64,000 bases of DNA from Flavobacteriales bacterium (lineage in GTDB: Bacteria > Bacteroidota > Bacteroidia > JANQJC01): assembly GCA_028281825.1 (NCBI GenBank), contig JANQJC010000100.1, positions 9,854 to 73,853 of the forward strand, read 5' to 3'. The notes under the pieces are model-generated. The model made no database searches and had not been told where the DNA came from. It worked only from the letters and a program-made list of their open reading frames with translations. The translations under genes and the position numbers were made by a program. This document shows, in pieces, positions 20,823 to 22,853 of the stretch; within the stretch, counting starts at the first letter, position 1, and each line of letters opens with the position of its first letter.

Positions 20823-22853
20823 ATGAAAACCAGGCTCATCACCACCCTAATTATTGCATTGCTCAATAGCATTGCTTTTGGGCAACACCCAGCCCCATAT
20901 TTAGCAGCCAGAACTGAGCTGCAAGCCATGCTTAATGGGGATGAACCATTGAGTTATGAAAAAGCCATCTTTTTGATGGAGAATGCCTATTATGATAACC
21001 AATTGAGCTATGAAAATTATCAGGCTGTGCTGGATTTTCATACTTCTAACATTAGAGCATTTATTAAAACCAATCGGGATGCGGAATATGATTTCTCACC
21101 CACCTTACTGGAAACCGAAGAACAAAAAAAGTTGAAGTATGAAAAGGCATTAGCAAATTGGAGTATTTATACCTATATCACAGACACCCTACTATTTGCG
21201 TTTGATGATCAACGTTTCTACTTAAAAGAGCCTTTTAATTATTCTTCACAAGACCCATTTGGCACTGGTGATTGGCAAAATACACAGGTGGTTAACCTAC
21301 TTGATAATGGCACAGGCAATTGCTTCGCTCTCACTTCACTTTTCAAGATATTTTCTGAAAGATTGGGCACTGAAGCCAATATCTGCACAGTCCCGGGTCA
21401 TGTTTACATCCGCCATGCTGATGACAAGGGCATTAAATACAATGTAGAACTAGCCACCCGCTTCTTCCCCGGCACAGGCAGTTTAGAAACCCTCACCTAC
21501 ACCACTGATGAAGCGGTAAGGAACAACATATCCCTCAGGGAGTTAGATTTAAGTCAATCAGTCGCACTATGTCTCGTTTATTTAGCAAAAGGGTATGAGC
21601 ACAAGCACAACATCAAAGGCGGTGATTTTGCATTAGCATGTGCTGAACTGGCACTGCAACATGACCCACTCAACCTCAATGCCTCGCTTTTAAAAGCAGA
21701 AGTATTGGAAGAGAGAGTTATCAGTCAAAACCAGCCAGAAGAAAGTGAGGACTTTAAGGAATACGAGAAATTGATAACCTATCTATATGATTTAGGCTAT
21801 CGCGAAATGCCTTTTGAGATGAAAAGTAAAGTTATTTCAGAAATGCTAGGGGACAATGCAATATTGGCAGCTAATGATTATACACCTACACCGTTTGAGC
21901 ATTTGGGTACGAAAGAAACCAAGTATGCTACCCTTTCCTGGGGCATGTACAACGAGATACAAGAAAACAAGCCTTATGAAAAATACGGCAGAGCTATTTT
22001 TGATACTCAAAAACGAAAAATAACAGGCTTTACACAAGCTGACATACTATACAACCAATATAATTTCGACCCCGTTGTTTTTGCCCTAAGTGTGGATCCA
22101 TTGGCAAGAGATTATCCCTGGAACAGTCCTTATGCGTTTGCGGAGAATCGGGTAATTGATGGAATTGACTTAGAGGGTCTGGAATGGACAAGATTTGAGA
22201 GCACTTCTTTTGATCCAGTCCTTCAAAACTCTTCCAGTGATGAGAGATACTCCTATCAACAGCAATCAGGAGGAGTTGCTACTCTTACTCACGATTTATG
22301 GCTGGGAATACTTGACTATGAAGCTCAAAGGGGTGGAAAACAACTAGATGCTTATTATGATGGCGGAATAATGGCCATGGCGGCTGAAGGAGCAAAACAG
22401 GCTAGATTTGATTTTGCATCGGGTTTTCACTACGGAGCGAAAGATGTGGTTCCTAAGCCAGGGAGTGGTGTTTTGAAGAGTACGAATAATGCAGTTCCTA
22501 AACGTCTAGCTAGAGTAATTAACTCTGAGGATGCTTCTTCTGGTTTACTTGGAGGAAGCAACAGGCCATTTGTGACAGCTGCGGAAGATATTAGTGGAAT
22601 TAATTCAGCAGAAGGGTTGTCACAACGGTTATCTTTGTTTGATGGAGATGGAAAACTTAGACAGGGGCCTTTTAAAGTAATTGAGTTTGATACACCTTCA
22701 CAAGGGATTGCGTCACCAGTAAATATAGCTGAAGAAGGTTTTAACTCAGGTTATGTAGGTAAAGGAAAAACAGCAGGAGGTGCGAGAGAGTTCACAATTG
22801 ATAACGGCCCTGTTAAGGATTTGAAAAATGTTACCATTAAAGATATCGAATGA
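20823..22853 (+). CDS. Chimeric polymorphic toxin: secreted Cys/His/Asp-domain protein fused to an RHS-core terminal motif and an unknown C-terminal toxin domain
   Basis: Signal peptide present. The N-terminal ~360 aa is paralogous to the upstream gene. Residues ~385-450 read [17 protein letters not shown]...[31 protein letters not shown]. This matches the conserved end of the RHS repeat-associated core (YYRARYYDPxxGRF...DPLAEKY.W.SPYAY..NNPI.FIDPDG). About 225 aa of unrelated sequence follows. Confidence 0.65.
   Translation: [676 protein letters not shown]

Follow-up and report, generated by a model that had tools for sequence, protein, structure and literature searches.

A Sec-signal toxin gene of a Flavobacteriales bacterium with an RHS-type junction, a probable copy of a widespread Bacteroidota polymorphic toxin module

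Genes at the locus and the family they belong to

The DNA analysed here, a 64,000-nucleotide stretch of contig JANQJC010000100.1 from a Flavobacteriales bacterium (the window), carries two adjacent genes, referred to as A and B, and an immunity gene directly behind them (Table 1). Gene B joins a conserved scaffold through a short junction to a C-terminal toxin tip, and the junction resembles the end of RHS proteins. An earlier reading of the sequence (the original prediction) had described gene B as an open reading frame (ORF) free of YD repeats, and this is borne out: no RHS/YD Pfam model (PF05593/PF25023) matches at E ≤ 1, and the motif Y.YD..G is not present in the protein. A protein identical to that of gene B (P0068) is found in public assemblies. 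Gene A likely has its true start at the ATG at 19284 (MKMYGF..., 492 residues), and a public assembly holds a gene call of 492 residues. The start codon of the immunity gene overlaps the stop codon of gene B (ATGA).

Table 1. Coordinates of the features at the A-B locus, in positions of the window
Feature	Position	Strand	Remarks
Gene A, toxin-less partner	19245..20762	+	Sec-signal protein, transglutaminase-like/TPR fold
Gene B, polymorphic toxin, 676 residues	20823..22853	+	Signal peptide, scaffold, junction, tip
Gene B, Sec type I signal peptide	20823..20882	+	No lipobox; read directly from the sequence
Gene B, conserved scaffold, residues 21-421	20883..22085	+	
Gene B, junction, residues 422-455	22086..22187	+	Terminal double-Asp segment (D425, D449)
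Gene B, tip linker/possible entry segment, residues 456-552	22188..22478	+	Low-confidence model, two helices
Gene B, Ntox10 toxin domain, residues 553-666	22479..22820	+	PF15520
Cognate immunity gene, tandem Imm27	22850..23266	+	PF15590; no signal peptide
Orphan immunity-type gene array	23263..25833	+	54-residue ORF, SUKH-1, SUFU-like, lipoprotein
SUKH-1 gene	23698-24336		Pfam SMI1_KNR4, E 1e-4
SUFU-like gene	24496-25182		Pfam SUFU, E 1.4e-15
Lipoprotein gene	25480-25833		FLGC lipobox

When residues 1-403 were used as a query, 289 proteins were recovered, mostly 660-705 residues long and 46-59% identical. An exhaustive search of 1.84 billion representatives gave 1,049 clusters that match the scaffold, of which 317 reach E ≤ 1e-30; in the best 150 of the 1,049 clusters, the proteins are about 650-760 residues long with the scaffold at the N terminus, and not one is as long as an RHS protein. 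Conservation, taken from 113 aligned members, runs at 0.45-0.87 up to about residue 455 and at 0.11-0.17 beyond. The residues corresponding to C167, H193, N207, E209, D425, and D449 of gene B are invariant, and a hydrophobic N terminus, indicative of a Sec leader, is seen in 53 of 54 members of the gene B family. Public records name the members "hypothetical," "Transglutaminase-like domain-containing," or "RHS repeat-associated core domain-containing." Pfam and NCBIfam contain no model of the scaffold, searches of the PDB with the whole protein and with the scaffold profile returned no meaningful match, and the literature yielded only Zhang 2012 and the unrelated TANFOR class, with no paper describing the family.

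The 60 genome loci collected come from Chitinophagaceae, Taibaiella, Chitinophaga, Flavobacteriales, Paludibacteraceae, and Cytophagia, and the named isolates and most of the metagenome-assembled genomes (MAGs) among them are Bacteroidota. Short MAG contigs in five loci (L008, L010, L048, L058, and L059) are labelled Gastranaerophilales, Methanolobus, Saccharospirillaceae, or Phycisphaerales; these labels most likely reflect contamination by Bacteroidota during binning rather than the true distribution. At another locus (L038:6224-8405), gene B is split into adjacent ORFs (residues 26-357, and residues 371-452 plus the tip), which represents either a frameshifted pseudogene or an assembly error, and a separate orphan cassette lies at 9296-10558.

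In its AlphaFold2 (AF2) model, the scaffold is an alpha/beta plus TPR protein that comprises a helical N-terminal domain, a transglutaminase/papain-like core, TPR-like helices (residues 243-342), and a small beta unit (residues 385-403). The fold of the model is clearly transglutaminase-like: among the core residues, which include E209, C167 (21321-21323) stands at the start of a helix and H193 (21399-21401) on a strand. The best structural match is menin, a nonenzymatic peptide-binding scaffold. At the level of sequence, Transglut_core2 (PF13369) reaches residues 150-199 below threshold (E 0.09; 12.7 bits against a cut-off of 23.5), a weak match that falls short of sequence-level membership in the group of menin/SirB1-type scaffolds and bacterial transglutaminase-like cysteine proteases (LapG, TglA, and CPR-C4). 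LapG, a periplasmic protease that releases a surface protein, offers a functional analogy, and none of the menin/SirB1/LapG group carries toxins or an RHS junction.

The N-terminal part of gene B had been said to resemble the gene upstream, and it does: residues 26-340 align with gene A at 27% identity over 339 residues (E 4e-27). Orthologs of gene A (36-64% identical) lie directly upstream of gene B, at position -1 and on the same strand, in 48 of 57 loci, usually with a gap of -14 to +38 nt. The invariant residues of gene A are C304, H330, and E346, the last of which aligns with E209 of gene B, and its orthologs have a Sec-type leader that lacks a lipobox and is followed by the mature N terminus Q[IV]xxPQxPxF (within 19284-19400 in the window; orthologs in L002-L049). 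Behind this motif, A has a Gln/Pro-rich low-complexity region that is absent from B. As A is so distantly related to B and is syntenic across orders, it is an ancient operon partner, not a recent duplicate. Both A and B are predicted to be Sec exported, with a menin-like transglutaminase/TPR fold and an invariant Cys-His(-Glu) site.

The junction and its RHS counterpart

The original prediction placed the end of an RHS core at residues 385-450. A query of 101 residues, run against 5.8 billion proteins, returned 67 short Bacteroidota proteins (E down to 3.7e-12; 72-94% identity over about 33 residues), many of which carry an RHS core end upstream (YYPFG...YRYGFNGQE...YDPRxGRF) and then diverge. 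Profile-profile comparison with hhalign, in which 116 family sequences were set against 101 RHS-type ends, gave a probability of 98.6% (E 6e-16) over 34 columns only; the 110 residues upstream of the junction, including 385-421, reached a probability of 0.6%, with no significant similarity to RHS ends. The block shared with RHS proteins is therefore confined to residues ~422-455. The predicted match is thus real in its second part, but residues 385-421 belong to the scaffold, being specific to it and conserved across the family. The original prediction would have been refuted by a family that normally carries the segment and has no relation to RHS proteins; the first half of this holds, but the second does not, given the homology of the segment with the RHS/TcC cleavage motif. 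The junction is the only site of its kind in the window.

The similarity extends to solved structures. A profile of Ntox10-carrying RHS ends matches the solved RHS/TcC/teneurin plugs (SGS1, 2.9e-11; YenC2, 6e-10; TccC3, 6e-8; RhsA, 1.4e-6), and the alignment puts svDPla...nryayvennpikyvDPdGle onto SADPAG...NLYRMVRNNPLRLTDPDGM of YenC2. Via this carrier profile, the junction maps to SADPAG...NLYRMVRNNP...DPDG[LM] of YenC2/TccC3. In RHS proteins, a plug of ~95 residues that sits within the barrel or shell forms the aspartyl protease; its catalytic aspartates are 22 residues apart, cleavage falls 4 residues after the second, and the Rhs1 toxin begins 5 residues after D1338 (PMC8765631, PMC8636562). 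By analogy, gene B is predicted to be cleaved after L453. Within the family, D425, P426, P436, Y437, D449, and G452 are invariant junction residues, and the spacing from Asp to Asp is 24 in 113 of 113 members (D425-D449 here).

The second motif of gene B has Leu in place of Pro (DLEGL), as do many RHS ends. The original prediction had regarded DLEG as degenerate and autocleavage as possibly lost. However, of the RHS-type ends retrieved, 71 of 99 have no Pro at this place, and the same is true of 56 of 116 family members; both Asp residues and the Gly are invariant. DLEGL is a normal lineage variant rather than a decayed site, and a loss of autocleavage through this change is unsupported, because the form is common on genuine RHS ends.

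Gene B thus ends in the terminal double-Asp segment of the RHS/TcC autoprotease (xDPxx...NPxxxxDxxG[LR]), placed directly before the toxin as in RHS/TcC proteins themselves, but with neither the YD shell nor the plug. The family also shares with RHS/TcC proteins its tips, including the Ntox10 tip of the window, its immunity genes, its orphan cassettes, and the replacement of tips at the motif. In contrast to them, it has no YD repeats and no match to the RHS-core model, and it bears a Sec signal peptide in place of coupling through PAAR/VgrG or TcB. Its carrier is a transglutaminase/TPR protein of ~400 residues with a paralogous partner, and its tip cannot be encapsulated.

In four proteins (P0005, P0047, P0052, and P0055), a third, short non-RHS N terminus, composed of a signal peptide and ~70 residues, precedes the same junction. 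Here the sequence ...LLVPNADTT..IGIEPQ..YYLFDKN...ARFLS leads into VDPLA...DLEGLE, and the tail behind it varies. It thus looks as if the junction serves several Bacteroidota scaffolds as a general socket.

A transglutaminase-fold domain right after the signal peptide and ahead of a polymorphic tip recalls the "inactive transglutaminase" RHS toxins of Zhang 2012, in which these domains are catalytically dead and always followed by RHS repeats (Biol Direct 7:18). Were gene B a member of this class, its domain would anchor the toxin at the surface, and its repeats would have been deleted secondarily. An RHS-derived junction agrees with such an origin, as do the report of an N-terminal transglutaminase after a signal peptide and the listing of both transglutaminase and RHS for Ntox10 in that paper. 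Membership is nevertheless improbable: whereas the class is defined by the loss of the catalytic triad and by the RHS array that follows, the window family has invariant Cys and His (plus E209/N207) and no repeats. Moreover, none of the best 150 of the 1,049 clusters is RHS-length, the 110 residues before the junction have no RHS similarity, and the conserved partner A does not appear in the published description.

Tip exchange and the tip of this copy

All 184 proteins in which the scaffold end is present carry the junction, and behind it lie 165 distinct tips (median, 217 residues) that fall into 73 clusters. Only a minority of tips match any Pfam family; the 14 families matched among 72 tip representatives include Amidase_2, YkuD, several zincins, Tox-REase-7, TNT, Ntox46, and Ntox10. 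The C-terminal Pfam domains among the 289 scaffold matches are Peptidase_M91, Tox-MPTase3, VWA7_N, and PF10908, with Ntox10 in the window protein only. With a conserved N-terminal scaffold, hypervariable C-terminal toxins, downstream immunity genes, and orphan cassettes, the family has the hallmarks of polymorphic toxins.

Where scaffolds are at least 80% identical, 84 of 120 pairs have unrelated tips, including pairs with scaffold identities of 95.7% and 95.5%. The breakpoints of these swaps lie either at ...VVFAW|, in which case the junction moves with the tip, or right after ...DGRE|. Orphan fragments, in which scaffold residues ~290-455 are joined to new tails, are located downstream in at least eight loci (L028, L035, L038, L050, L051, L053, L055, and L060); no orphan toxin cassette is found in this window. 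The junction is the crossover block for tip exchange, both within the family and with the pool of RHS and orphan cassettes.

Two loci of the MAG nzgw115 (L051:67-11242 and L054:337-13073) have a full-length RHS gene (2,132 and 2,012 residues) directly upstream of A-B and an orphan cassette, and the RHS, B, and orphan junctions share the subtype AEKFPSxSPYxAMxN. Recent gene conversion between the adjacent RHS and A-B genes is not demonstrable there, as DNA identity is 0.6-0.73.

If the junction were a recombination or linker block only, gene B would encode an uncleaved, bacteriocin-like toxin of 70 kDa, with the scaffold as its receptor-binding or translocation domain. The position of the tip-swap breakpoints is what such a block predicts, and the junction is disordered in the AF2 model of the isolated scaffold; gene B has neither the plug nor the shell from which RHS proteins normally form the protease, and menin-like scaffolds bind peptides without cleaving them. 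Yet both Asp residues, the Gly, and the 24-residue spacing are invariant among proteins that are only 35-59% identical, and DNA identity between junctions is just 0.55-0.80, even within one genome. Residue-specific conservation of the protein together with low identity of the DNA is better accounted for by a functional peptide motif than by a block of DNA homology, and we regard a mere linker as unlikely.

Within the family, the tip of the window copy is a singleton. A tip on an RHS end (P0188) matches it along the full length at 44% identity, and tips of this type also occur on RHS proteins of Chloroflexota, Sphingobacteriia, and Bacteroides. The junction subtype string of this copy (18 residues) likewise occurs verbatim on RHS ends with other tips. 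GC skew rises from ~0 to +0.3 just after the junction, with a break in composition at ~22300, and GC content is 0.38-0.46 in the scaffold versus 0.29-0.36 through the immunity array, where GC skew is strongly positive. As the junction subtype and tip are atypical for the family and typical of RHS ends, and composition shifts, the two were probably acquired from the RHS/orphan cassette pool.

The original prediction had offered two origins for gene B, the first being that an RHS cassette entered a duplicated gene by recombination. Taken as a single event, this would mean that in this genome alone a recent recombination, illegitimate or homologous, had placed an RHS C-terminal cassette in the recent duplicate of a secreted-enzyme gene, perhaps with a nonfunctional fusion as the result. 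Such a chimera would explain why the junction subtype and the Ntox10 tip are singletons here and common on RHS ends, and why the junction coincides with a change in GC skew and in GC content. However, the same order of scaffold, junction, and tip recurs in 184 proteins and 60 genome loci, the supposed duplicate upstream is only 27% identical and syntenic across orders, and the ORF is intact and translationally coupled to the immunity gene. With a layout that is family-wide, a partner that is ancient, and an ORF that is intact, the tip may be recent but the architecture cannot, and a one-off chimera is very improbable. What survives of this origin is the probable import of the tip. The second origin, a new delivery scaffold for RHS-type tips, agrees with the findings, as a non-RHS scaffold carries the terminal RHS junction and swaps tips there.

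The C-terminal ~220 residues of gene B are unrelated to the scaffold, in line with the unrelated domain of ~225 residues first predicted, and contain Ntox10 (E 2.7e-21; 76.8 bits against a cut-off of 26.8). The Ntox10 core is modelled with confidence by AF2, and most of the linker of ~95 residues ahead of it has a predicted local distance difference test (pLDDT) score of <50. In homologous tips carried by RHS proteins, the place of this linker is taken by hydrophobic stretches rich in Gly/Ala, and the linker may be an entry segment. Structural matches of the Ntox10 core are Rhs1-CT (6.5), SPN (6.3), Tne2 (5.8; 25% identity), Tpt1, TreTu, pertussis S1, DarT, and RES. Among 63 Ntox10 homologs, R564, T585, and E656 are invariant, and they fit the R / [S/T] / E pattern; on the model, Ntox10 would share this pattern, as well as a cytoplasmic immunity protein, with toxins of the ADP-ribosyltransferase (ART) fold (Tne2, Tse6, Tre23/Rhs1-CT, TreTu, and SPN). 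No sequence-profile link between Ntox10 and ART-fold toxins was found. The model suggests that Ntox10 has an ADP-ribosyltransferase/NADase fold. Zhang 2012 described Ntox10 as an "alpha+beta" fold with several charged residues and gave Imm27 as its primary immunity protein, with "Proteases: Transglutaminase; Repeats: RHS" also listed (Biol Direct 7:18).

The Imm27 profile matches the immunity protein of the window in two stretches, residues ~15-60 and ~85-130 (E 3.7e-9; 36.8 bits against a cut-off of 27.3). A small ORF lies downstream of gene B in 42 loci, and in 35 of these it has a signal or lipoprotein leader, in keeping with the large number of peptidoglycan and zincin tips and with passage of the carrier through the producer's periplasm. 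The leaderless Imm27 of the window, for its part, is consistent with a tip that uses NAD+, acts in the cytoplasm, and has an entry linker.

A proposed toxin module and its surroundings

We propose, with a probability of roughly 0.7, that A, B, and Imm27 together represent a single copy of a polymorphic toxin module, widespread in Bacteroidota but so far undescribed, whose tip is released after Sec export. Gene B would be exported through Sec, and its tip would then be released by cleavage of the junction after L453. Cleavage could be carried out by the conserved Asp pair, as in RHS proteins, or alternatively by the Cys-His site of B in cis or that of A in trans. The released tip would consist of the linker or entry segment and an Ntox10 enzyme with an ADP-ribosyltransferase/NADase fold; its target, in a competitor's cytoplasm, would be NAD+ or an ADP-ribose acceptor, and the leaderless Imm27 would protect the producer. 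We infer both the cleavage of the junction and a route across the outer membrane.

Several points weigh against this proposal. Just the last ~34 residues of the ~95-residue RHS plug are present in gene B, and they are modelled as disordered, so autocleavage may not work here. With menin as the structure that matches the scaffold best, the Cys and His could serve binding, not catalysis. The RHS-core model of NCBIfam, which the original prediction had put forward as a check, matches neither the whole protein nor residues 370-470 even at E ≤ 10, and Pfam and NCBIfam give nothing at E ≤ 10 for residues 370-470 or for the 37-residue motif. The motif is too short and too lineage-specific for curated models, and its homology is shown instead by the database matches and by hhalign. 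In addition, A is not next to B in some loci (L054, L050, and the second copy in L007), and apart from A no conserved gene or secretion system recurs within ±8 kb of the module. Export past the inner membrane, cleavage, and toxicity are themselves predictions from sequence and models.

The closest conceptual counterpart in Bacteroidetes, although without relation in sequence, is the class of TANFOR toxins, which are also Bacteroidetes-specific and have Sec signals, polymorphic C termini, and downstream immunity genes (PMC7073777). They differ in having an unrelated N-terminal domain and much larger proteins, with no paired paralog or RHS junction reported (PMC7073777). Cargo genes for type IX secretion (T9SS) are enriched near TANFOR genes (PMC7073777), which is not seen around A-B; in the other loci, no T9SS cargo genes linked to the toxin module were found. 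Pfam matches to the T9SS C-terminal domain (Por_Secre_tail/CHU_C) are missing from both A and B, the C terminus of B being the variable toxin. Likewise, no Pfam match to features of type VI secretion (T6SS) or of the type V system of contact-dependent inhibition (T5SS/CDI), namely PAAR, VgrG, Hcp, and TPS, is present in gene B, and the neighbours within ±8 kb include no apparatus.

A bolder and tentative view is that A-B is a new Sec-dependent, two-component delivery module in which paired menin-like transglutaminase/TPR cysteine enzymes hold, process, and hand over toxins. The 34-residue RHS remnant would then allow release at a minimal site that needs no shell, and it would be a universal "socket" in common with RHS proteins and at least one other scaffold. 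If so, toxins that act in the envelope or in the cytoplasm would leave the producer and enter competitors by an unrecognised route. In the current view, RHS toxins depend on the YD shell and plug for encapsulation and cleavage of the toxin, and here the last 34 residues, with both catalytic Asp residues invariant, are kept on a small Sec-exported carrier across ~1,000 clusters. This raises the testable question of whether the double-Asp segment suffices by itself for cleavage or instead serves to dock another protease. The probable module would be a common toxin system of soil, freshwater, and gut Bacteroidota, so far unannotated, and its family a pool of new toxins and immunity proteins. It bears on how Bacteroidota export antibacterial toxins without T6SS or CDI, and the modelled fold suggests an ADP-ribosyltransferase/NADase activity for the uncharacterised Ntox10.

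The array behind Imm27 consists of four immunity-type genes without adjacent toxins and resembles a poly-immunity island that has been inserted between lptB and purS. The Ntox10 tip, the overlapping Imm27 gene, and the SUKH-1 and SUFU genes identify this as a polymorphic-toxin locus. A scan for sigma-70 promoters and terminators gave counts at or below shuffle expectation, the sigma-70 scan being uninformative for a Bacteroidota genome. Elsewhere in the window, three likely T9SS cargo genes (11026-14841, 29216-34225, and 44914-48915) code for an SprB/PKD/CHU_C protein of 1,271 residues, a Peptidase_C25 of 1,669 residues, and a beta-helix/PKD protein with a Por_Secre_tail, which indicates that the host is a T9SS-bearing member of the Bacteroidota.

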